From the NCBI GenBank assembly GCA_027492205.1, contig JAOZFN010000010.1, positions 1-64,000 on the forward strand: a DNA stretch of 64,000 bases, given 5' to 3'. Of this stretch, positions 4,686 through 35,914 are shown in pieces. This DNA comes from Thermoproteota archaeon. Lineage in GTDB: Archaea; Korarchaeota; Korarchaeia; Korarchaeales; Korarchaeaceae. The position numbers were made by a program, and so were the translations under genes. The notes under the pieces were generated by a model. That model did not search any database. It was not told the origin of the DNA and saw only the letters and a program-made list of their open reading frames with translations. The first letter of the stretch is position 1, and each line of letters begins with the position of its first letter.

Positions 4686-5675
4686 TTACACCATGCCTTC
4701 CACCGCCTCAACTATGTCCTTTGCCCAGCGCATGTACCGGTTCTCGAGCGGGGGGGAGAACGGGATGGGCATATCGGGCGACGCCACCCTCACGATCGGG
4801 GCGTCTAGATAGTCGAAAGCTCCCTCGACGATCGTGGCCGCCAGCTCGGCGGTGACGCCGCCGGTCTTGCAGTCGTCCGCCGCCACGACGGCCCTCCCCG
4901 TCTTCTTCACGGACTCCACTATCGTCTGCCTGTCCAGGGGGTTGAGGGTCCTTGGATCAATCACCTCCGCGCTTATCCCCTTCTTTTCGAGCTCTTCAGC
5001 GGCCTTCAGAGCCTCGTGAACCATCCTGGACACCGCCACTATGGTGACGTCGCTCCCCTCTCTCTTAACATCCGCCACGCCCAGGGGGATCTCGTAGGGC
5101 TCCTCCGGCACGGGGCCCTTTACCCCGTAGTAGAGGACGGCGCACTCAACGAACAGCACTGGATTGTCGTCCCTTATGGAGCCGATTATCAGCCCCTTCG
5201 CGTCGTAGGGGGTTGAGGGAGTCACCACCTTCAGGCCCGGGACGTTCATGTACCAGGCCGGGAAGAAGTTGGAGTGCTGGGCGGCGTGCGCCCTCCCCAG
5301 GCTGTACTGGGTCCTCACCACGAGGGGGATCCTCAGCTTCCCCCCGGATGAGAACCTCATCTTCGCGGCCTGGATGACCAGCTGCTCGGTCGCTATGGGC
5401 AGGAAGTCCATGTACATGATCTCGGCCACGGGCCTGAGACCCATTATTGCGGCCCCTATGGCGGCGCCCACAATCGCGATCTCTGAGATGGGGGTGTCTC
5501 TGACCCTCTCCGGGCCGAACTCCTCAAGGAGGCCCTTGGTGACCTTGAAGGCGCCCCCGTAAGCGCCTATGTCCTCTCCCATCAGGACGACGCTCTCGTC
5601 CCTCTGCATCTCCTGCCTGAGGCCCTCCCTGATGGCCTCGGCGTAGGTCAGGATCCTCTCCTCACCTGTGCTCAC
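4686..5675 (-). CDS. 2-oxoacid/acetoin dehydrogenase E1 beta subunit
   Basis: GEDIGAYGG, DTPISE, AAQHS, IDPRTLNPLD. Confidence 0.93.
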   Translation of the reverse strand: MSTGEERILTYAEAIREGLRQEMQRDESVVLMGEDIGAYGGAFKVTKGLLEEFGPERVRDTPISEIAIVGAAIGAAIMGLRPVAEIMYMDFLPIATEQLVIQAAKMRFSSGGKLRIPLVVRTQYSLGRAHAAQHSNFFPAWYMNVPGLKVVTPSTPYDAKGLIIGSIRDDNPVLFVECAVLYYGVKGPVPEEPYEIPLGVADVKREGSDVTIVAVSRMVHEALKAAEELEKKGISAEVIDPRTLNPLDRQTIVESVKKTGRAVVAADDCKTGGVTAELAATIVEGAFDYLDAPIVRVASPDMPIPFSPPLENRYMRWAKDIVEAVEGMV

Positions 5676-6700
5676 GCGTAAACCACCTCCCAGAGCTTGT
5701 CGAACTCGAGGACCTCGCTCTCCTCGGCGAACTTCACTGCCTCCTCGATCTCTTTGGCCACCTCTTCTCTGACCTCCTTCAGGCGATCTTCTGTGGTAAT
5801 TCCAGCCTCAATTAACTTCTGCTCGAACCTGGGGAGCGGATCCTTCTTCTCCCATTCTTCGACCTCCCCCTTGGGCCTGTACGTGGCCTTGTCGTAGACG
5901 CCGTGCCCCTTGAGCCGGTAGGTGATGAACTCTATGAGGGTTGGACCCTCTCCGCGGAGCGCCCGATCGGCGGCCTCTTTGGTGGCCTTGTAGACGCTGA
6001 GGACGTCGTTTCCGTCGGCAATCACGCCGGGCATGCCGTAGGCCGCGGCTCGGTAGGCAACCCGGCCGCACGTTATCGACTTTCTCGCCGGCATGGACAT
6101 GCCCCACTGGTTGTTCTCGCAGGCGAAGATGACCGGGAGCTTCCAGAAGGAGGCGAGGTTGAGCCCCTCGTGGAACGCGCCGGTGTTCGCGGCGCCGTCG
6201 CTGAAGAACCCGACGACGACGCCCCTTTCTCCCCTGTACCTCAGGGCCAGCGCGGCCCCTGCCGCTATGGGTATCCCGCTCCCCACGATCGCCGAGGCCC
6301 AGAGGGCGCCCCGCTTGGGATCTATGGCCACGTGCATGGACCCGCCGAGTCCCTTGACCACGCCGGTCTCCTTGCCGAATAGCTCGGCCATGACCTCCTT
6401 CGGCGGGATGCCCATGGCCAGCGCGTGCCCGTGGCCCCTGTGGTGGCTTACTATGTATCCAAACCCTTCTATTGCCCGGGCCACGCCTACGGCAATTGCC
6501 TCCTCTCCAGTATAGAGGTGGGCGGTTCCCTGGATCCTGGCCTCATAGAGGTACAGCTGCTCCACCCTGTTTTCGAAGAGGCGAAGTTCGACCAGCTTCC
6601 TGTACATCCGAAGGAGGTCTCCCTCGGTCAGCCCGAGTGAAAGAGCCTCTTGAACTGAGACCTCCCCAATCTCCTCTATCTCGATCTCGAGCTTGGCCAA
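5672..6700 (-). CDS. 2-oxoacid/acetoin dehydrogenase E1 alpha subunit (TPP-dependent)
   Basis: HRGHGH, GGSMH, SDGAAN...ENNQW TPP motif, TYRLKGH. Confidence 0.93.
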   Translation of the reverse strand: MAKLEIEIEEIGEVSVQEALSLGLTEGDLLRMYRKLVELRLFENRVEQLYLYEARIQGTAHLYTGEEAIAVGVARAIEGFGYIVSHHRGHGHALAMGIPPKEVMAELFGKETGVVKGLGGSMHVAIDPKRGALWASAIVGSGIPIAAGAALALRYRGERGVVVGFFSDGAANTGAFHEGLNLASFWKLPVIFACENNQWGMSMPARKSITCGRVAYRAAAYGMPGVIADGNDVLSVYKATKEAADRALRGEGPTLIEFITYRLKGHGVYDKATYRPKGEVEEWEKKDPLPRFEQKLIEAGITTEDRLKEVREEVAKEIEEAVKFAEESEVLEFDKLWEVVYA

Positions 6701-6760
6701 CGTGGAGGCACCGTTGAAAAGTATAGGACAATCTTATAGTTTTTGATGAAGTGCGTCGGT

Positions 6761-7426
6761 TCACGCCCTGCCCTCCGCGCACCTCCTGAGCAACCTCGCG
6801 GCTTCTGCCGGGTCTTCTTTACCAAATATCGCCGAACCGGCGATCAATACGGTGGCTCCGGCCTCGACGACCTTACTGACGGTTGAGCAGTTCATCCCTC
6901 CATCCACGGCTATCTCCAGATTGAGTTTCCCGTCCTCTATCAGCCGCCTCAGCTTCCATATCTTTCGGAGCGTTCCCTCGATGAACCTCTGACCCCCAAA
7001 CCCGGGCTCAACGGTCATAACGAGGACCCGGTCGACCGAGTCGAGTAACTCTTCGATCGTCGAGAGGGGGGTGCCGGGGTTCAAGGCCACCCCGACCTTC
7101 ACGCCAGCAGATCTGAGCGACGTCGAGAGGTAGATCGGCCTGCTTGCGGCCTCTACGTGGAAGTAGACCACGTCCGCTCCTGCCTCCGCAAACCTCTCAG
7201 CATACCTCTCTGGAAGCTCTATCATCAGGTGAGCCTCTATCGGGAGGTCGGTTGTCCGCCTGAGAGCCCTGACGACGGGGAGCCCAAAGGAGAGGTTGGG
7301 AACGAAGTGACCGTCCATGACGTCCACGTGGATGCTGTCCACCCCACCTTCCTGGGCGCGAGCAACCTCCTCTCTGAGATTCGAGAGGTCTGCAGAGAGT
7401 ATGGAAGCAGAGAGACTGACGGTCAT
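6761..7426 (-). CDS. rpe: Ribulose-phosphate 3-epimerase
   Basis: SILSAD, HVDVMDGHFVPN, MTVEPGFGGQ, VDGG. Confidence 0.95.
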   Translation of the reverse strand: MTVSLSASILSADLSNLREEVARAQEGGVDSIHVDVMDGHFVPNLSFGLPVVRALRRTTDLPIEAHLMIELPERYAERFAEAGADVVYFHVEAASRPIYLSTSLRSAGVKVGVALNPGTPLSTIEELLDSVDRVLVMTVEPGFGGQRFIEGTLRKIWKLRRLIEDGKLNLEIAVDGGMNCSTVSKVVEAGATVLIAGSAIFGKEDPAEAARLLRRCAEGRA

Positions 7427-7492
7427 TCGACTCAACGTCCTAGACAATTATTTAAGGATCCTTTCCCTTCGGGTTGGCTTCGGATGTGCTCA

Positions 7493-7768
7493 ATGGCCCG
7501 CGCCGAAACGACTGTTCAGCTGAAGAACAAGGTGGGCCTCCACGCCAGACCAGCATCCCTCTTCGTGCAGACGGCAAAGAAGTTCAAGTCAAAAATCGTC
7601 GTCAGAAAGGATGATAAGGAAGCCGACGCAAAGAGCATCCTCGGAGTGCTCTCTCTGGGCGCCGAGTACGGGCACTGGATAACGATAGTGGCTGAAGGAG
7701 ATGATGCTGAGGAGGCGGTCCAGGCCCTGGCGTCCCTAGTTGAGAGCCGCTTCGGGGAGGCGGAGTAA
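7493..7768 (+). CDS. ptsH: Phosphocarrier protein HPr
   Basis: GLHARPA (His15 motif) and DAKSILG (Ser46 motif); ATG at 7493. Confidence 0.95.
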   Translation: MARAETTVQLKNKVGLHARPASLFVQTAKKFKSKIVVRKDDKEADAKSILGVLSLGAEYGHWITIVAEGDDAEEAVQALASLVESRFGEAE

Positions 7769-7769
7769 C

Positions 7770-9521
7770 TTGCGGGCTGGCCCCCGGGAGTTCAGAGGTA
7801 TCCCCGCCTCACCGGGCGTCGCGGTGGGGAGGGCCTACCTCTACGTCCGGGGTTACGTCGAGGTAGAGAAGAGGGAGCTGAGCGAAGAAGAGGTCGAGGG
7901 CGAGATACTCAGGTTTGAGAGCGCCATAACGCTCGCGAAGGGTTACCTGAAGAAGCTCTACGAGCGGGTGAAGTCTGAGATAGGCGAAGAAGAGGCGGAG
8001 ATCTACGAGGCGCACCTCATGATCTTGGAGGACGAGACGTCCTTCCTCAAGCCGGTCGAGGTAATGATCCGGGAGCAGAGGGTCAACGCGGAGTACGCGG
8101 TTGAGACCGTCCTTGAGAGGGTCGCCAAGCTGTTTGAGGAGATGGAGAGCCAGTACATGAGGGAGAGGGCGGCAGACGTCCGGGACGTCAAGAGGCTCGT
8201 CTTGACGGCCTTAAAGGGGAAGATAAACGAGATCTCTGCCCCGCCAGAGGAGTCGATAGTCGTGGCCCATGAGCTCCTGCCGAGCGACATGGCCACCTTG
8301 GACAAGTCGAAGGTCCTCGGCTTCGCAACAGACAAGGGAGGTCCCACCTCCCACGTGGCCATCGTGGCCAGGACCCTGGGCATACCGGCCGTGGTGGGGC
8401 TCAGGGAGCTCTCCGTCCTCGTTCGTGCTGGCGACCCCATCGTGGTGGACGGAGACCAGGGGTTGGTGATAGTCAGGCCCGACAGGGAAACCATGAAGAG
8501 CTACAGGGTGAAGATGTCCGAGCAGATCCGCGAGAGGATGCTCCTGATGAAGTACGCCCCCCTGCCGGCGGAGACCAAGGATGGATTCAGGATAGGCGTG
8601 TTCGCAAACGTGGGGGGGTTGGAAGACCTAAATTACGCTCTGTCCATGGGCGCCGAGGGTATTGGCCTCCTGAGGACCGAGTTCATGTACGTCAGCTCCC
8701 CCAGGTTCCCGACCGAGGAGGAGCTCTACACGAACCTGAGGGGGTTCGTCGGGAAGATGGGTAACAGGCCCGTCATAGTGAGGACACTCGACATTGGAGC
8801 AGATAAGCCGCTGCCGTACTTCACCATGCCGCCCGAGCCGAACCCGATGCTTGGCTGGCGCGGCATAAGGGTGACCCTCGACAGGCCCGAGATCCTGCTG
8901 ACCCAGGTCAAGGCCGCCCTTAGGGCGGCCTCCCTGGGCAACCTCTGGGTTATGTTCCCCATGATCTCCTCGGTTGAGGAGGTGAGGAAGGCCAAAGAGG
9001 TAGTTCACGACGCGGCCTCCCAGCTGAAGAAGGAGGGCAAGGAGTTCCGGGAGGATGTCAAAATCGGCATAATGATCGAGACGCCCTCCGCCGTACTCAT
9101 GGCCCGAGACTTGGCCAAGGAGGTGGACTTCTTCAGCATAGGCACCAACGACTTAACGCAATACGTCATGGCCGCCGACAGGACGAACGAACTGGTCTCA
9201 GGCCTGTACAGCCACTTTCAGCCCGCCGTTATAAGGGCCGTAAAGGGGGTGGTCGAGGCCGCGAGGGAGGCCAGGATACATGTGGGCATGTGCGGGGAGA
9301 TGGCAGGTGACGAGCTGGCGATTCCGCTGCTGGTGGGAATGGGGCTAGATGAGATCAGCATGGCGCCCACCTCAATTCCGAGGGCCAAGAGGCTTGTCAG
9401 GTCGATAACTAAGGAGTCCGCGGAGAAACTCGTCGCGGAGGCTTTGGAAGCTGCAACGCTAGGTGAGGTCAAGAGGATCCTAGAGGGTTTCACGAGGTCA
9501 ATTTCATACTCTGGGCCGTGA
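7770..9521 (+). CDS. ptsI: PEP-protein phosphotransferase (PTS enzyme I)
   Basis: GIPASPGVAVG, GGPTSHVAI, GLLRTEF, EPNPMLGWRG, FSIGTNDLTQY, MCGEMAG. Confidence 0.96.
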   Translation: MRAGPREFRGIPASPGVAVGRAYLYVRGYVEVEKRELSEEEVEGEILRFESAITLAKGYLKKLYERVKSEIGEEEAEIYEAHLMILEDETSFLKPVEVMIREQRVNAEYAVETVLERVAKLFEEMESQYMRERAADVRDVKRLVLTALKGKINEISAPPEESIVVAHELLPSDMATLDKSKVLGFATDKGGPTSHVAIVARTLGIPAVVGLRELSVLVRAGDPIVVDGDQGLVIVRPDRETMKSYRVKMSEQIRERMLLMKYAPLPAETKDGFRIGVFANVGGLEDLNYALSMGAEGIGLLRTEFMYVSSPRFPTEEELYTNLRGFVGKMGNRPVIVRTLDIGADKPLPYFTMPPEPNPMLGWRGIRVTLDRPEILLTQVKAALRAASLGNLWVMFPMISSVEEVRKAKEVVHDAASQLKKEGKEFREDVKIGIMIETPSAVLMARDLAKEVDFFSIGTNDLTQYVMAADRTNELVSGLYSHFQPAVIRAVKGVVEAAREARIHVGMCGEMAGDELAIPLLVGMGLDEISMAPTSIPRAKRLVRSITKESAEKLVAEALEAATLGEVKRILEGFTRSISYSGP

Positions 9522-29034: not shown

Positions 29035-30195
29035 GTGCAGGCAGAGGGGCGGGTGGTCATCTTCTCCGGCCCCGCGGGGAGCGGGACCTACGAGAGAATG
29101 TTAGAGGCGGCGAGGCTCGCGGAGGAGTGGGGGTACGAGGTAAAGGTCGAGAGACTCTTTGACAGGATGGCGAGAGTGGCTAGGGAGAGGTACGGGCTCG
29201 AGATAACCGAGGAGAACGTGCTGAACCTCCTGAGGGAGAGGCTCATCTCTATCAGGAAGGAGGCCGTCGAGGAGATCAGGGGGGAGATCGAGAGCAGCCA
29301 GGGGTTCTACATGGTGAGGTCCCCGGCGACCTTCTTCTGGGGAGGGACGCTGATCACGGGGCTCGACCTGGACGACGTCATGAAGCTCCGGCCCGATGCC
29401 TTCATAGTAGTCGTCGACGACATCATGCCAGTGAAGGCGAGGCTGGAGGCCGATCCTGAGTGGAAGACCCAGAGGTTCACCCTCAGAGACCTAGCTTCTT
29501 GGAGAGAGCAGGAGACCACTCTAGTCGAGGAGCTGGCGAGGTGGACCAAGGCGGAGTTCTACGTGGTCGCGAGGGCCCACCCACCCCGCGTATTTGCGGA
29601 CCTGGTCGTGCACCCGGAGAAGCCAAAGGCCTACATCAGCTTTCCCATGACGCACGTGCCGCCCGACATTTACAGGGAGTTCGAGGCCAAGAAGGACAGG
29701 TTCGTTGACGAGCTGGACAAGCTGGGCATCGTGATATTCGACCCAGCGACGATGGCCGAGGGGGTCATACTGTCCAAGCTGGAGGAGTACGAGAACAGGG
29801 CCAGGTCCGAGGGGAGGGAGCCCGACCCTGGGGAGGAGCTGGAGATCACGGTTAACTACGGCGGGGAAGAGCGGGTCTACAGGTACACCTACCAGGAGCT
29901 GGCGGCCGTAGACCCCCTGGTGGAGGGACAGATCGTGAAGAGGGACTTTGCCATGATCGAGTCCGCCAACATGGTGATAGTTTACAACCCCTTGGGCATA
30001 CCGTCCCCGGGCGTGGCCTGCGAGATGATGTACGCCCACAAGGTCCTTGGTAGGGACGTCTACCTCATCTGGGGGAAGGAGGGTAGGCCCAGTCCATTCT
30101 ACACGGCGTTCTGCAACAGGCGGTTCTCGACGCCGGAGGAGTTCCTCGAGTACGCACGGACTCACGTCAGGCCCAGGTGGGGAGGGATGAGCTAG
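29035..30195 (+). CDS. Adenylate-kinase-like P-loop domain fused to a nucleoside 2-deoxyribosyltransferase-like domain
   Basis: N-terminal IFSGPAGSG, WREQE; C-terminal YISFPMT, FDP, RDFAMIESANMVIVY, SPGVACEMMYA. Confidence 0.65.
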   Translation: MQAEGRVVIFSGPAGSGTYERMLEAARLAEEWGYEVKVERLFDRMARVARERYGLEITEENVLNLLRERLISIRKEAVEEIRGEIESSQGFYMVRSPATFFWGGTLITGLDLDDVMKLRPDAFIVVVDDIMPVKARLEADPEWKTQRFTLRDLASWREQETTLVEELARWTKAEFYVVARAHPPRVFADLVVHPEKPKAYISFPMTHVPPDIYREFEAKKDRFVDELDKLGIVIFDPATMAEGVILSKLEEYENRARSEGREPDPGEELEITVNYGGEERVYRYTYQELAAVDPLVEGQIVKRDFAMIESANMVIVYNPLGIPSPGVACEMMYAHKVLGRDVYLIWGKEGRPSPFYTAFCNRRFSTPEEFLEYARTHVRPRWGGMS

Positions 30196-30748
30196 CTCCG
30201 CTCCTGAGTGAGCTCTGAAAGCTCCGAGAAGTCATCTAAAGAGGGAGGAGCAACGAGATCGACCTCCCCAGCAGACGTCCCGGCTAACTTGGGCTCACCA
30301 GCGCCTCCAGAGTGAACTGCAGGAGCACCTTAGAAAACGCCGCCCCCGCCTCAATGTAGCCTTGGCTCCCCTCGGTCGCAGCCCCCAGCGCACAACGCCT
30401 ACGCAGTGACGTCAGAAGAGAGTCCAGAGGAAAACAAGGGGACTCGCAGATCTGGGGGCATTGGAGTCGTCCTCCGCGAAGGCTTAGCCCTGGACAGCCT
30501 GGGCGGGGAGGTATGCCTTCACGCCCTCCTGGGAATCTCGGCTCTCCTCTTGGGACTTGGCCACGGGCATAGTCCGAGGGAGCTGTCGCTCGGAGATCCC
30601 CCGGTATTGACCTGCCCAGACCCGGGCCCACCCCTCACGTGCGGCGGGAGAGTCCTATTCGAGTTATGAGGTAAAAGGGCAAAGAAGAGCGGAAGTTTGA
30701 CCGCCCGCCACGGCATTATCTTCCGGCGCCCCTCCCTTGCGGGAGACC

Positions 30749-31831
30749 ATGAGCTGGGGAGGGGTCGCTTCTGTCGCTCTGACCCTGATGCTGCTGGCCT
30801 CCGTTGCGTGGGCCGCGGTCTCCGCCCCCTCCTACTCACTATCCGTGTCTGTAACGCCGGGTGAGGGGTCCGTGGGTGAGTCGTTCACCACGTCGGTGAG
30901 GATAGTCATAGACGGCCTCCAGCAGGGAGATGCGGCCCACTCGATTATGTGGACCTGGGATCCAGGGGGGGTCGAGAAGTACTCCGACCACTCCCCCTAT
31001 TGGACTGACGCGGACGCGCCTGTAGACTACGAGACGACGTGGACGGTCACGGCAGACAGCCCGGGAACTTGGACCTCCTGCGTCACCCTGGTTCTCGAGC
31101 ACGCCACCTCCGACGGGGTTGAGCGCGATGAGATAACCCGCTGCTCAACCTTCGAAGTCTCCGAGCAGGGCGGGGGTGGGGGAGGCGGCGGGACCGCTAA
31201 GAGGCCCACCAGAATAACGATCCGCGTCAACCCCGACAAGGTTTCACCCGGAGAGCAGTTCAGCGTGAGCGGGGGACTCTTCGACGACAGTCAGAGCGAC
31301 TGGTGGAACCATCCGATAGCCGGAGCGAGGATAAGGGTGGTGTTCAAAGGGCAAACCAAGACAGCCACCACGTCGGCCAGCGGAGAGTGGAGCGTGGTGT
31401 TCACGGCCCCGGCCCAGGAGGGAACGTACGGGGTCAGGGCTAGCTTTGCGGGTGATTCCCAGTACGATGGGACTTCTGCCAGTGGAACGGTGAGGGTTCA
31501 GAGGCAGTCCAAGAAGAACTGCACGATTGAGCTCATCTTCCCCAGGAGGGTTCGCGTGGGGGATGTCGTCAACGTCACCGTCGTGCTTAGAGACGCCGAG
31601 ACGCACCGAGAGATCAGGGGAAAGGTTGTGACGCTCTACATCGAGGCCGAGAGCCACCGGGTGGAGTCCGGCTCGACCTTCACGATCCAGGCGAAGTACA
31701 CCGGCACTATAGACGTCGGCGCCAGGTTCGAGGGGGATGAGGAGTACAACGGGGCCTACGATCCTGGGGGGCTAATAGAGGTCTGGACGAGACCGGAGAT
31801 CACAATCACCTACGTGGGGTGTGGGGAATGA
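30749..31831 (+). CDS. Secreted Ig-like protein 1 (three Ig domains plus spare C-terminal strand; putative tip)
   Basis: Signal peptide, poly-Gly linker, Ig repeats (FAGDSQY, FEGDEEY), ends WTRPEITITYVGCGE. Confidence 0.85.
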   Translation: MSWGGVASVALTLMLLASVAWAAVSAPSYSLSVSVTPGEGSVGESFTTSVRIVIDGLQQGDAAHSIMWTWDPGGVEKYSDHSPYWTDADAPVDYETTWTVTADSPGTWTSCVTLVLEHATSDGVERDEITRCSTFEVSEQGGGGGGGGTAKRPTRITIRVNPDKVSPGEQFSVSGGLFDDSQSDWWNHPIAGARIRVVFKGQTKTATTSASGEWSVVFTAPAQEGTYGVRASFAGDSQYDGTSASGTVRVQRQSKKNCTIELIFPRRVRVGDVVNVTVVLRDAETHREIRGKVVTLYIEAESHRVESGSTFTIQAKYTGTIDVGARFEGDEEYNGAYDPGGLIEVWTRPEITITYVGCGE

Positions 31832-32481
31832 GAATCAGAAAGAGGAACCTCCTGGCCCTTCTACTGCTCACCCTGGCCGTGGCCCCTGCCCTTGCCCAGA
31901 CAAAGGTCTACAGGGGGGACACAGTAACGGTATCGGGGGTTGTCAAAGACGAGCTGGGGAACCCGGTGGCGGGAGCGACCGTTCAGCTCCTGGACGGGGC
32001 CACACTGCTGGACTCCACAACCACAGGCTCGGACGGGTCCTTCACCCTCACCTGGACCGTGCCGCCCGACCACCCGCTGGGGCCAAAGACCCTGACGGTC
32101 TACGTGCCTGAGCAGCCGAGCCTCTACGTGGAGGCGTCCTCCGCCTCTGTCTACGTAGAGATCTGGGCCCTGGCCGTGATCAGCGCCAGCGGGCCTCAGC
32201 GTATACACAGGGGAGACGAGGTCACGATATCGGGCTCGGTCCAGGGGATCAGCTCGGGGACCGTGGAGGTTCAGCGAGACGGAAACACGATAGCCACGGG
32301 CCCAGTCAGCGGTGGTCAGTTCAGCGTGAGCTTCACCGTGCCTAACGACTGGCAGAAGGGTCCAGTCACCCTTACGGTGACCTGTCCGAGCGGGAGCTAC
32401 GTGGACGTTCAGGAGGGCCAGGTGAGCACGGGGCTGTGGGTCAGGCCGACGATAGAGGTCACCGAGGTCTCAGGCGGATGA
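31828..32481 (+). CDS. Secreted Ig-like protein 2 (putative shaft subunit)
   Basis: Signal peptide ALA|Q; two Ig domains; ends WVRPTIEVTEVSGG; ATGA overlap with protein 1. Confidence 0.85.
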   Translation: MRIRKRNLLALLLLTLAVAPALAQTKVYRGDTVTVSGVVKDELGNPVAGATVQLLDGATLLDSTTTGSDGSFTLTWTVPPDHPLGPKTLTVYVPEQPSLYVEASSASVYVEIWALAVISASGPQRIHRGDEVTISGSVQGISSGTVEVQRDGNTIATGPVSGGQFSVSFTVPNDWQKGPVTLTVTCPSGSYVDVQEGQVSTGLWVRPTIEVTEVSGG

Positions 32482-33704
32482 TCCCCATGAGGGGGAGAGC
32501 ACTCCCGCTCCTTCTCGGTCTCTTGGGCCCGGCGGCTACCCTCGCTCTGGCGCAGGCCCACGTGGTTCGGGGTCAGGCCCTAACCATCACGGTCAGGCTC
32601 GCAGACGAGAACGGCGCGCCTCTAGCCGGCGTGACGGTCCACTTCTTGGACGAGACTGACGGGGTGGAGGTGGGAGCCGGCGTGACGGACTCCGACGGCT
32701 GCGCCAGCGTGACCTGGGCCACCTCGTCCGCCAGCCCAGGGCTTCACTCGATCCTGATCTGGACGGAGGAAGGCAACTACGTGGAGAAATCGCAGACCAG
32801 GCTCAGCGTAGAGGTACTGGCCCCTGCCGAGCTGGGGCTGAGCGTCTCTGCACCGGCTGCTGTGAGGCCGGGACAGAGCTTCGTGGTTAGGGCTACGGTG
32901 TCTAACGGTGGTCAGGCCGCGGCGCAGGATGTGAAGGTGAAACTCGGCCGAAAGAGCAAGGAACTGGGGGATCTTCCCGGAGGGGCCAGCTTGACGGCTG
33001 AGTTCTCCCTAAGGGCGCCCAACGAGCCCGGAGACTACGATCTGACTGTTGAGGCTGTTGGGGTGGAGTGGGGAACCGGGCGGGCCCTCTCGGTCTCATC
33101 TAGGGTTCACTATCATGTTAAGACCGAGGGGCTGGCGCTGGAGATCAGGGCTCCCTATTCGGTCAGGGAGGGAGAGAAGTTTGCCTTCTCTGTCGATCTC
33201 AGCAACGTGGGGGAAGATGAGGTCAGCCTGTCGATCTCGATAAACATCTCGGGGGCCCGGCCCGACCATATTGAGGACTTCGCCACCCTCAACCCGGGGG
33301 CCAGCATTACACGCGCCTATTTCGCCACGGCAGGCGAGGTGAGCGAAATCTTGTTGATTGCATCAGCCGAAGGAGGAGGCCTGAGAGCGAGCGATGAGGC
33401 GACCATAGCCGTCGTACCAGCCCCTCCCCCGCCTAGGCCTCCAGCCTCACGGCCAACTCCCACAGAGCTTACTTCACCGCCGGCGAATCTGACCTCGCCG
33501 CCCTCGACCTCCCCAGCCACGCGCCTGGCCCCGCCCTCGACCTCCCCGGGCGGGCACGCTGAGGTCGAGGTGAGCGTCACGCCCGATGTAGGCGCGGGGT
33601 CCAACGCCCCTCCCTCACTTAGGGGGGCTTCGGCGCTTGGATCGGGCTTCGTCTTGGCCGCTTTAGTGATCCTCAGGGGGGTGTGGAGGGTGGAAGATCC
33701 CTAA
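32478..33704 (+). CDS. Secreted Ig/CARDB-like protein 3 with Pro/Ser/Thr linker and C-terminal TM anchor
   Basis: Signal peptide ALA|Q; three Ig-like domains; PST-rich linker; GFVLAALVILRG TM; ATGA overlap with protein 2. Confidence 0.85.
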   Translation: MIPMRGRALPLLLGLLGPAATLALAQAHVVRGQALTITVRLADENGAPLAGVTVHFLDETDGVEVGAGVTDSDGCASVTWATSSASPGLHSILIWTEEGNYVEKSQTRLSVEVLAPAELGLSVSAPAAVRPGQSFVVRATVSNGGQAAAQDVKVKLGRKSKELGDLPGGASLTAEFSLRAPNEPGDYDLTVEAVGVEWGTGRALSVSSRVHYHVKTEGLALEIRAPYSVREGEKFAFSVDLSNVGEDEVSLSISINISGARPDHIEDFATLNPGASITRAYFATAGEVSEILLIASAEGGGLRASDEATIAVVPAPPPPRPPASRPTPTELTSPPANLTSPPSTSPATRLAPPSTSPGGHAEVEVSVTPDVGAGSNAPPSLRGASALGSGFVLAALVILRGVWRVEDP

Positions 33705-33779: not shown

Positions 33780-35186
33780 TCAGGGGCACCCCAGCGCCCG
33801 CAGCCCCTCGGGAAGGCCCGCTGTTATTATCCGCTCGATCCCCTCGAGGGGGGCCTCATCGTAGTATACGACGTACTGCCCGTTCTCGAGGGGGGCCACA
33901 TCTCGAACCACGTAGTGAACGAACCCGGAGTGGGCGAGGAAGTTCCTCACATGGTCTGAAGTGTACGTCGCTGACATAGCCTGCTCAAGGAGCCTTACGG
34001 GCTTTGAATTGCGACGGGCGGCCATGAGTCGCTCTAACCAGGCTCCGAGTTCCCTCTCTTCATTTTGACCGGGTGCGCTGGGCCTGAGGAAGTCCAGAGA
34101 CCTTCCAGCCAGGAACCACAGCCTAAACAGCGGGGCCCCAGGCGGGAGCCGCCCAACCCTACACTCCACGGCCTTTCTCTCCAGGAGAAAGCTGGCGAGG
34201 GTGGAAGGTTCCCCCCCACGCCCAGTTGGCGGGGCCTCGTCGAGGGTTCCGGCGACCTCTGAGAGGAGGAGGTGATACTGCAGCACCATGCCCTTCTGCT
34301 TGTAGAGTGAGAGCAGCTTCCCAATCAGCTCAGAGGGAAGAACTCCGAGTTGGCAGCCATGGTCGAGGCCGAGGATTCTGGAAGCTCTCCGCGCGAATTC
34401 ACCCACCAGCAGGGGAACGACTTCTGCTGGCCGGCCCCGGGGGTAGTAATCCCCTCCAGCCTCCGTCCTCTCCAGGAGTTTCAACACCCTGCAGAGGTGG
34501 AGGTGAACCATTGTGGGGGATCCGAGTGACACGCCCAGCGACATCAGCGCGGCCTCTCTCAACAGATCGGCAGACGGACCCGGCCGCAGGCGTGCGGCGG
34601 ATTCCACCAGAGCCCTCCATTGGAGAACTTGTTGAGGATTCTCAAGTATTTTTGATAAAATTTCGGCTATTTGAGCAATTCTCAGGACGCTTTTTGGCGG
34701 CGACTCCTGCGCTCTCCAGGTTGCTCCGCGGGGTTTGCGGGCGATTACCGTGAGCTTCCGCCCCGCCGCCAGCGAGTGAGCTAGGGCGCCCAGGAGGGCG
34801 GAGGAAGTCACCGGGTCGGGTCCACCCCATGGAATTAGGAAGACAACCGTCTCCGCCCCATTCAGGGTTGAGAGAACCGACACGCTGGCGACAAATGCTC
34901 TCTCACCGAGCTCCTCGAGCGCGCAATCGGGGCGTTCGTCCAGGGCCACGCCGACGAGCCGAACGGTCGAACTGGACAGCACGCGACGGTCTAGGCCCTC
35001 GCGGCCCGGCGATCCTCCGGATCTCAACAAAACTAGGGTGGCCTCCCCATCCATGTCTACGATCTTCTCGAGCCCCGTGATGGCCCATTCCAGGGCCTCT
35101 GTCACAGACATCGACTCATCTATACCCCCCTCGGGCGCGCATAGGGGCAGTAGAACTGCGAGGGGCAACTCTGTACTCACCTCCAC
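33780..35186 (-). CDS. Csx1-like CARF-HEPN ribonuclease (divergent)
   Basis: C-terminal RNFLAHSGF matches the Csx1 HEPN RxxxxH motif; N-terminal Rossmann-like region; Csx1-like length. Confidence 0.65.
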   Translation of the reverse strand: MEVSTELPLAVLLPLCAPEGGIDESMSVTEALEWAITGLEKIVDMDGEATLVLLRSGGSPGREGLDRRVLSSSTVRLVGVALDERPDCALEELGERAFVASVSVLSTLNGAETVVFLIPWGGPDPVTSSALLGALAHSLAAGRKLTVIARKPRGATWRAQESPPKSVLRIAQIAEILSKILENPQQVLQWRALVESAARLRPGPSADLLREAALMSLGVSLGSPTMVHLHLCRVLKLLERTEAGGDYYPRGRPAEVVPLLVGEFARRASRILGLDHGCQLGVLPSELIGKLLSLYKQKGMVLQYHLLLSEVAGTLDEAPPTGRGGEPSTLASFLLERKAVECRVGRLPPGAPLFRLWFLAGRSLDFLRPSAPGQNEERELGAWLERLMAARRNSKPVRLLEQAMSATYTSDHVRNFLAHSGFVHYVVRDVAPLENGQYVVYYDEAPLEGIERIITAGLPEGLRALGCP

Positions 35187-35914
35187 CTAAGAACGGGCCT
35201 CTCTTCGTCACCCGCTCCCGTCAGGATTGAGATGGCTCTGAAGACTGCCCTCCCAAGCTCGGTTGCCCTTGCCTCCCCCGTGACGCCTACTTCGATCAGG
35301 CCAGCCCCGACCAACCAGGCAACTAATTCGCCGTCGGCGCGCTGGTACCTCCCAGAGAGTATCCTCATCACGCTCTCGAGGAGGGCGGGCGGAAGGGGAA
35401 GGATTGGGAGCCTGTGAATCTCATAGTCATCTTGCTCAGGCCAGAAGATCTCTTCAATAACATGCTCCCCGACCTTATCCCAGGACAAAATCGCGCTCCT
35501 CCACCTCTCAAGCCTCTCCCCAGAGGTCGCCATGATGACGGAGTAGACCCCGTCTAGCGGGACCATCTGGGCGATTGAGGTTAGCAGCGCCGCAAGCTCT
35601 GGGGTAGAACAGGAGATTAGAACGCTCACCAGGTCTGGATTGACCGCGCTCAGAGCGTGGCAAACGGCCTCCAGCCACTCCTCTACTTGACCGCTCAGTT
35701 CTACGCCCTCTACCCTCACCCACCTGTACTTCAAGTTGAAGGACTTTCTGAGGATCGGTAGGACCCATTCGGACCCCGGGGGGACTACTAGCACGATCAC
35801 CTCCGGCGCGAGTTCGTCCCTAGCCAGATGTCTGTAGGCTCTACTGATTAACCACGGCTCACTGCACGCAGGAGCCAAAAGCACATTAACGGCCCTTCTG
35901 GGCAGGAAGGGCAT
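35177..35914 (-). CDS. CARF domain protein (Csx14/Crn1-like) with C-terminal wHTH
   Basis: VLLAPACSEP...PEVIVLV...VSVLISCSTP...VYSVI...EIFWP...HRLPILP follows the Csx14 pattern; LVGAGLIEV...ATELGR wing. Confidence 0.6.
   Translation of the reverse strand: MPFLPRRAVNVLLAPACSEPWLISRAYRHLARDELAPEVIVLVVPPGSEWVLPILRKSFNLKYRWVRVEGVELSGQVEEWLEAVCHALSAVNPDLVSVLISCSTPELAALLTSIAQMVPLDGVYSVIMATSGERLERWRSAILSWDKVGEHVIEEIFWPEQDDYEIHRLPILPLPPALLESVMRILSGRYQRADGELVAWLVGAGLIEVGVTGEARATELGRAVFRAISILTGAGDEERPVLRWR

Follow-up and report, generated by a model that had tools for sequence, protein, structure and literature searches.

According to the available sections of one report, the subunits of type V pili of Bacteroidota (FimA/Mfa1) are made as lipoprotein precursors from which Arg-gingipain cuts off the N-terminal strand; the groove that this opens takes up a C-terminal donor strand, and the lipidated anchor is itself a donor, with its N-terminal strand retained (PMC8512630). 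The extracts available on other systems name an N-terminal donor strand in chaperone-usher pili, in enterococcal WxL/Elr pili, and in Sulfolobus threads (Saci_0406) and Pyrodictium cannulae (CanA/CanX), and they describe an internal linker strand between two domains for the Pam pilus of the candidate phyla radiation (CPR). The archaeal donor-strand filaments (threads, cannulae, bundling pili and Tafi) appear in these extracts as homopolymers of one small subunit. Here we analyzed a window of 64,000 nucleotides (the whole stretch under study, positions 1 to 64,000 of contig JAOZFN010000010.1) from the genome of an uncultured korarchaeon, GCA_027492205.1. In this window, three adjacent genes encode immunoglobulin (Ig)-like proteins that we call P1, P2 and P3. 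We propose, with a probability of roughly 55%, that these proteins are a membrane-anchored adhesin-like stalk made in three parts and rejoined in the order P1→P2→P3 by inter-subunit strand complementation.

The host genome is 1.94 Mb in 17 contigs and 96% complete, and the window is contig C15. The open reading frame (ORF) listing gives three plus-strand genes with ATG starts, of 360 (P1), 217 (P2) and 408 (P3) residues. ATGA overlaps couple P1 to P2 at 31828-31831 and P2 to P3 at 32478-32481. Their features are given below; AF2 stands for AlphaFold2, pLDDT for predicted local distance difference test, and junction-profile positions refer to a profile of Ig-domain junctions described in the text that follows.

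30749-31831, plus strand: P1 gene; signal peptide, complete N-terminal β-sandwich, Gly8 hinge, two Ig-like domains and C-terminal tail; presumed donor only.
30749-30814, plus strand: putative P1 signal peptide, residues 1-22 (..VAWA↓A) by the AxA rule; pLDDT below 50 for residues 1-25.
30815-31168, plus strand: P1 N-terminal domain, which brings a first strand of its own (SYSLSVSV); AF2 strands from 28-36 to 123-138; presumed distal end.
31787-31828, plus strand: P1 C-terminal tail, residues 347-360, TRPEITITYVGCGE; orphan strand-A-like candidate donor; junction-profile positions 90-101.
31828-32481, plus strand: P2 gene; signal peptide, Ig-like domain without strand A, complete Ig-like domain and tail; presumed acceptor and donor.
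31897-32166, plus strand: P2 domain 1, residues 24-113; begins at the A' position, with one strand fewer than domain 2.
32440-32478, plus strand: P2 C-terminal tail, residues 205-217, VRPTIEVTEVSGG; orphan strand-A-like candidate donor; junction-profile positions 90-102 with high posterior.
32478-33704, plus strand: P3 gene; signal peptide, Ig-like domain without strand A, two CARDB-like domains, Pro/Ser/Thr linker, hydrophobic segment and conserved C-terminal motif; presumed acceptor only.
32553-32822, plus strand: P3 domain 1, residues 26-115; starts at the A' position; 31% identical to P2; presumed acceptor of the P2 tail.
33414-33629, plus strand: P3 Pro/Ser/Thr-rich spacer, about residues 313-384; poorly conserved and of variable length among orthologues.
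33630-33701, plus strand: P3 hydrophobic segment, residues 385-399 (about 15 residues), and conserved end R-G-x-W-R-V-E-D-P, residues 400-408.

Each protein has a hydrophobic N-terminus closing in A-x-A, and the putative cleavage sites are ..VAWA↓AVSAP in P1, ..APALA↓QTKVYRGD in P2 and ..TLALA↓QAHVVRGQ in P3. In the AF2 models, residues 1-21 of P2, like residues 1-25 of P1, have pLDDT below 50. An initial annotation of this DNA had described three ATGA-coupled genes, each with its own signal peptide, and the sequence agrees. The peptides it quoted are all present, namely the internal Ig-domain peptides RPTRITIRVNPDKVSPGEQF of P1 and ALAVISASGPQRIHRGDEV of P2, and the tails of P1 (W-TRPEITITYV-GCGE) and P2 (W-VRPTIEVTEV-SGG). 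P3 has the Pro/Ser/Thr linker and, after it, a hydrophobic segment. Pfam and NCBIfam recognize only generic Ig-like families in the triplet (Big_3_5, CarboxypepD_reg, Big_1, MG4, CARDB and A2M). P1 matches Big_3_5 with E 3.5e-9, and the Pfam matches of P3 are MG4, CARDB, A2M and NPCBM_assoc.

The position of the breaks became apparent from comparison with unsplit relatives. A profile of 15 P2 orthologues was searched against 1.84 billion representative proteins and gave 5,122 matches of any length at E ≤ 0.001 (the 125-residue fragment P0013 was left out of the P2 alignment and P0173 out of the P1 alignment). The best relatives are giant multi-repeat proteins of 1,000-6,300 residues that carry the two-domain P2 module internally, with E values down to 1e-129 for P0024. 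Residues 30-212 of P2 align with residues 2175-2361 of P0024, and the tail (W204..T212) falls on EIWAKTYMNLT, which is there continuous with the next Ig-like domain. No simple P1-P2-P3 fusion was present among the matches of this length-free representative search, which were giant repeat proteins only; the other homologue searches covered proteins of similar lengths.

A junction profile was then made from 35 windows centered on domain junctions and cut from 147 giant relatives. Its consensus is ...VTVW-ANTTITITSVS-ESVVRGDNITISG..., in which position 91 is the Trp, 92-102 form strand A and an R-G turn occupies 107-108. The P1 tail aligns with positions 90-101 and the P2 tail with positions 90-102, which is strand A. 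Mature P2 begins with Q24 at profile position 4, which is equivalent to position 102 by the internal repeat (R9/G10 = R107/G108). The first aligned residue of P3, H28, is at position 6, equivalent to 104. Because the P1 and P2 tails end on the profile where mature P2 and P3 begin, donor and acceptor abut without a gap, and they do so at the same point at both junctions; the donors keep 2-4 spare residues beyond the abutment point. The alignment is reproducible among orthologues. For all 15 P2 tails the alignment stops at profile position 101-102, which leaves 2-3 residues over, and 9 of the 10 P1 tails lie on strand-A positions (P0181 gave no separate last match, yet its tail is aligned). Three of the seven P3 orthologues start at position 5-6, and the other four are aligned from within the signal peptide at 95-101. 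Judged by position on the profile, mature P2 and P3 begin where strand A would end, and the tails match that strand.

The AF2 monomer models are in agreement with this assignment. In the P2 model (pLDDT 88), the signal peptide is disordered and the strands of domain 1, assigned by DSSP, are 25-28, 32-38, 51-56, 59-65, 71-77, 85-93 and 104-112. Domain 2 has an extra first strand at 113-121, followed by a short strand at 125-126 and by 131-139, and domain 1 has nothing that corresponds to strand 113-121. No strand is formed by the tail (204-217). The P1 model has a pLDDT of 81.8; its strands are found within 28-138, 154-250 and 258-346, and the tail 349-360 is disordered, with pLDDT below 50 and without a strand. 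Neither tail folds back in cis; such a fold-back is what the initial annotation had named as evidence against its idea. Its assignment of P1 as donor, P2 as acceptor and donor, and P3 as acceptor with an anchor is borne out by the junction profile and by the P2 monomer.

The tails rank with the best conserved parts of the proteins. In P1, W346, T347, R348, P349, I351, I353 and G357 are invariant in 10 of 10 orthologues (56-73% identity). In P2, L203, W204, P207 and I209 are kept in all 15 sequences (47-88% identity). Among 10,958 six-frame ORFs of at least 80 residues from the whole genome, the motif W.[RK]P.[IVL].[IVL] occurs within the last 20 residues of two, P1 and P2, and anywhere in nine. 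These data bear on a different explanation, namely that the three are independent secreted or anchored Ig proteins, that P2 and P3 each have at their N-terminus a full seven-strand fold with no need of a partner, and that the tails are leftovers of gene fission or bind the surface layer, a glycan or a processing enzyme. Residues that stay invariant among orthologues of 47-88% identity are not expected of a leftover. In addition, the tails recur at both junctions, in a two-gene form and in the triplet of another class, every junction is cut at one structural position, and the three genes are adjacent and tightly coupled wherever they are found. The explanation nevertheless draws on the AF2 result that the lone domain 1 of P2 folds confidently, on a CarboxypepD_reg profile that begins past the "missing" strand, and on the fact that binding between the subunits is deduced from sequence position. 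On balance we regard independent proteins as distinctly unlikely.

For the split stalk, the following assembly is suggested. Sec would carry each precursor across the membrane, and signal peptidase I would cut off its signal peptide. P3 would be retained in the membrane by means of its C-terminal hydrophobic segment and would project the Pro/Ser/Thr spacer, the two CARDB-like domains and the late-starting Ig-like domain. The 13-residue C-terminal tail of P2 would give the N-terminal domain of P3 its strand A, and the P1 tail would do the same for the N-terminal domain of P2. P1 would be the free distal end, because its N-terminal domain is complete. The product, joined outside the membrane, would be an ordered, non-covalent chain P1→P2→P3 of about eight β-sandwich domains, and this chain is probably an adhesin-like stalk. 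In tandem Ig geometry, strand A leaves from the end of the preceding domain; the joined product would therefore equal the unsplit chain with the break shifted by one strand. A fold-back of the tail in cis would require it to span an entire domain. A domain made of two chains has parallels: once complement C3 has been processed, its MG6 domain consists of two chains, and CnaB domains split by engineering (SpyTag type) demonstrate that splits can rejoin. The cleavage sites, trans insertion of the tails, order, stoichiometry and adhesive function in this scheme are all inferred from sequence.

Several observations weigh against the rejoined stalk. AF2 gives P2 domain 1 a pLDDT of 96-98 without an added strand, the Pfam CarboxypepD_reg match in P2 starts only at residue 34, and a seven-strand fold such as that of P2 domain 1 is complete in other proteins. 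The AF2 confidence and the late start of the CarboxypepD_reg match imply that P2 domain 1 may be stable by itself. The tail may be at most an edge strand and not the filler of a deep groove. The pLDDT of the P2 tail is high (94 and 82 per block) despite the absence of a strand. The AF2 models cover P1 and P2, and P3 domain 1 was placed by sequence. The cleavage sites were read by eye with the -3/-1 (AxA) rule and are thus putative, and in this genome the start of P1 includes a basic residue only if TTG at 30737 serves as start codon. Every relative stems from metagenome bins. A three-chain complex prediction (P1 252-360, mature P2 and P3 26-120) counts neither for nor against binding, since a control in which chain 1 was replaced, with P2 and P3 kept, scored equally high; the score is not specific, and the three-chain design was a flaw.

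The distribution of the system was surveyed in 40 relatives of graded kinship together with the host genome, and then in 40 genomes of the class. True triplets were found in three genomes of the same genus (G001, G003 and G004, but not G002, which is 72% complete) and in two of a second genus (G005 and G009). All five have the identical tail pattern and post-cleavage starts. At the thresholds used, no triplet was found in any of 21 genomes of the third genus or elsewhere in the class, in its remaining genera and families. A full triplet recurs in G030, a genome from another class of the phylum (locus L045, contig C42, minus strand, 5324-9275), with 25-40% identity and matching cut points. Its tip (about 535 residues) carries a first strand of its own together with the tail ..VWSKPHFENIAIGGG, its middle protein (230 residues) reads ..SSA↓APQVQRGE.. 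and ends in the tail ..VWSKPHFKDIKVSP, and its anchor (about 526 residues) reads ..TFA↓NPSFFTGQ.. and carries CARDB-like domains and a membrane helix. The search for syntenic triplets that the initial annotation had recommended finds the arrangement kept in two genera and a distant class. A pattern scan of contigs gave 13 loci, of which three are true relatives (those of G001, G003 and G004) and ten are single-Ig matches in bacteria and one nanoarchaeon. A search of the ESM Atlas returned generic archaeal Ig-like clusters only.

A two-gene paralogue, made of a tip and an anchor without P2, is present in G009 (L018, C7) and G018 (L009, C17) and partly in G012 (L011, C168). The tip has 467-470 residues and a diverged tail, ..EVWTKPVL[RK][TV].IG.., and the directly adjoining anchor starts with ..SG↓Q[QE].FVQG.. 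and ends with ..W[KG]VE[KE]P. G009 holds both the triplet and the doublet. As the two-gene form sets a tailed tip beside an anchor that lacks strand A, the conserved unit is a donor tail plus a late-starting acceptor, with zero or one middle module. Tails are almost invariant in the main group, and there are three diverged lineages.

The flanks of the triplet are syntenic throughout the genus, and identity there is 81-94% for the upstream 386-residue protein versus 56-64% for P1, 62-85% for P2 and 48-57% for P3. For surface proteins, the lower values of the triplet are no surprise. Within the triplet, conservation is highest in P2, which also combines acceptor and donor. Both facts agree with a fiber, the interpretation favored by the initial annotation, in which P2 would polymerize head to tail without a chaperone into P1-(P2)n-P3 with large n, P1 as cap and P3 as anchor, to form a new kind of archaeal pilus. 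The tails of P1 and P2 are also nearly identical within each lineage (W-x-[RK]-P-x-I-x-[IV] in the two korarchaeal genera and W-S-K-P-H-F-x-[ND]-I in G030), whereas the two-gene tail that coexists in G009 is different (K-P-V-L-[RK]-[TV]-x-I-G). This difference indicates that tails can diverge and that those of P1 and P2 have not, and nothing in the sequence forbids a P2-to-P2 contact. Archaeal cannulae, as presented in the extracts available, are a precedent for chaperone-free polymerization by strand donation.

The donor and acceptor anatomy of that earlier interpretation stands; the fiber itself is not supported. P2 is single-copy in the genome and lies in the middle of the operon with ATGA coupling on both sides, which suggests near-equal amounts of the subunits rather than a major subunit in excess. 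Operons without P2 occur, and in fold the proteins resemble macroglobulin domains and the modules that make up giant adhesin stalks rather than pilins. We consider a long fiber somewhat unlikely, and we rate a fixed split adhesin, the alternative named by the initial annotation, no lower than the fiber. Promiscuous tails together with similar amounts of the three proteins would lead to P1-(P2)n-P3 chains with small n, and for the split stalk one or a few P2 per chain is most likely. A fuller form of the fiber can be entertained only tentatively. It would be a new class of chaperone-free fiber in Korarchaeia, in which the cut by signal peptidase I unmasks the acceptor and a C-terminal tail fills it, with a P2 shaft of tandem Ig domains, P1 as cap and P3 as root. 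The topology would be the mirror image of chaperone-usher pili, threads and cannulae. Such a fiber would have arisen by cutting of a giant adhesin, and some anchor signal peptides might serve as a temporary self-complementing strand.

Compared with the described systems, the triplet resembles type V pili, as far as the available sections on them go, in its C-terminal donor, assigned here by sequence position only, and in its missing N-terminal strand, tip, shaft and anchor subunits and proposed assembly outside the cytoplasmic membrane. It differs from them in having AxA followed by Gln or Ala, with no Cys after the cut in P1, P2 or P3 and no lipobox. In the triplet the gene sequence that follows the signal peptide just does not include the missing strand, and there is no dedicated strand-removing protease. 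As the presumed anchor is an acceptor with a C-terminal membrane segment, the polarity would be opposite to that of type V pili. No homology to FimA/Mfa1-type pilins was found by Pfam, NCBIfam, PDB sequence search or Foldseek. Among about 40 listed of 299 Foldseek matches to the PDB (E ≤ 0.001) for both models, tandem Ig domains, Bap, titin and complement MG domains were seen and no pilin; the PDB sequence search gave one match, the N-terminal domain of SusC.

With threads, cannulae, bundling pili and Tafi, as described in the extracts at hand, the triplet shares an archaeal host, Sec/Tat export, a proposed junction through one donated β-strand and probably the absence of chaperone and usher, and in those systems a neighboring gene has been proposed as a cap. 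It differs from threads and cannulae in its C-terminal donor, and from all four in its multi-domain subunits and its chain of three different subunits. The mature N-termini of P2 and P3 start inside a domain without any extension, unlike the N-terminal donors of single-domain pilins. Pfam, Foldseek and PDB sequence searches revealed no homology to threads, cannulae, bundling pili or Tafi. Chaperone-usher, WxL/Elr and CPR Pam systems would share with the triplet the donor-strand principle, a non-extendable tip and a basal terminator. In the available extracts, however, their donors are N-terminal, the strand that they lack is C-terminal, and they depend on dedicated chaperones encoded in the operon, and none is encoded beside the triplet. 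To judge from sequence, the triplet topology would be the inverse of most known donor-strand systems, with a C-terminal donor, a missing N-terminal strand and an acceptor as anchor.

The giant archaeal multi-Ig surface proteins (tandem Big_3_5/CarboxypepD_reg) share with the triplet the repeat module and the W-x-x-x-I-x-I junction, and they too carry a signal peptide as well as a C-terminal membrane segment. They are single polypeptides of 1,000-6,300 residues, whereas the triplet is broken twice inside a domain and has a signal peptide at each break. Tandem Ig-like domains, a signal peptide and a cell anchor, the features of fibrillar multi-Ig adhesins, are all found in the triplet, and one continuous polypeptide is not: the three ORFs have their own stops and signal peptides, and five related genomes and G030 keep this split. 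By descent, as far as sequence comparison tells, the triplet belongs with these giant proteins. It looks like the donor-strand principle in another form, with strong, purely computational support from sequence and comparative data.

If the parts are joined as proposed, nature would here have divided a multi-domain surface protein into parts that are exported one by one and assemble by themselves, with a domain completed across the break by a C-terminal strand. The donor-strand repertoire would be widened by a new polarity that needs no chaperone and no protease besides signal peptidase. For Korarchaeia, of which few members are in culture, it would also be the first proposed assembly on the cell surface. 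The literature searched contains no description of a korarchaeal surface appendage other than type IV, and full-text searches of a limited literature collection found no published description of such a split korarchaeal system. The locus would offer a plausible route by which pili arise from fibrillar adhesins through gene fission, and orthogonal tail/acceptor pairs from a thermophile could serve as modules for joining proteins. Should the three parts stay separate, the locus simply encodes Ig-domain surface proteins of an ordinary kind.

At the distal end, the N-terminal domain of P1 matched no specific family by Pfam or Foldseek. Its Cys111 and Cys132 are invariant in the alignment of 10 orthologues. 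A run of eight glycines (31169-31192, residues 141-148) joins this tip domain to the Ig-like domains and is probably a flexible hinge; the linkers at this site in P1 orthologues are rich in Gly, Ser and Asp and vary in length. The P1 start at 30749 is ATG, and the alignment of orthologues begins there; TTG at 30737 is likewise open. The stored gene call for P1, P0173 (319 residues), lacks the signal peptide because its start is placed 41 residues too far downstream. P1 orthologues have 362-369 residues except P0181 (328 residues), which is also short at its N-terminus.

At the other end, G388, S389, R400, G401, W403, R404 and V405 of P3 are invariant in all seven aligned orthologues, with the consensus R-G-x-W-R-V-E-[DE]-P, and the W[KG]VE[KE]P of the two-gene anchors is a similar ending. 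P3 is the sole ORF of the genome that ends in R-G-x-W-R-V-E-D-P, which speaks against a general sorting signal. An archaeosortase-type signal (PGF-CTERM-like) was considered and rejected, since only one protein has this end and no NCBIfam model matches it; no search was made for the sortase gene. The motif may be a cytoplasmic contact site. The junction profile places the end of the signal peptide (..T-L-A-L-A; 32478-32552 for P3 of the window) on strand-A positions 94-101 in four of the seven P3 orthologues and in four anchor ORFs from the loci (two P3 and two two-gene anchors). One may speculate, on the strength of this alignment, that the uncut P3 signal peptide fills the acceptor site until cleavage.

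With Pfam and NCBIfam families, no chaperone-, usher-, sortase- or protease-like gene was found among the neighbors. A local assembly factor was thereby rejected, because neither the upstream 386-residue protein nor the downstream genes belong to chaperone, usher or sortase families; the initial annotation had likewise noted no assembly machinery encoded locally. The upstream gene (29035-30195, plus strand) has a P-loop-like GPAGSG(T) motif and no Pfam or NCBIfam match. It is always 5' of the triplet in the genus but does not lie there in G030, where the flanking genes are wholly different. Downstream are two overlapping minus-strand genes (33780-35186 and 35177-35914); two genomes of the genus keep both next to the triplet, and the larger (33780-35186) has a weak match to Csx1, a CARF protein, at E 0.015, far below the cut-off.

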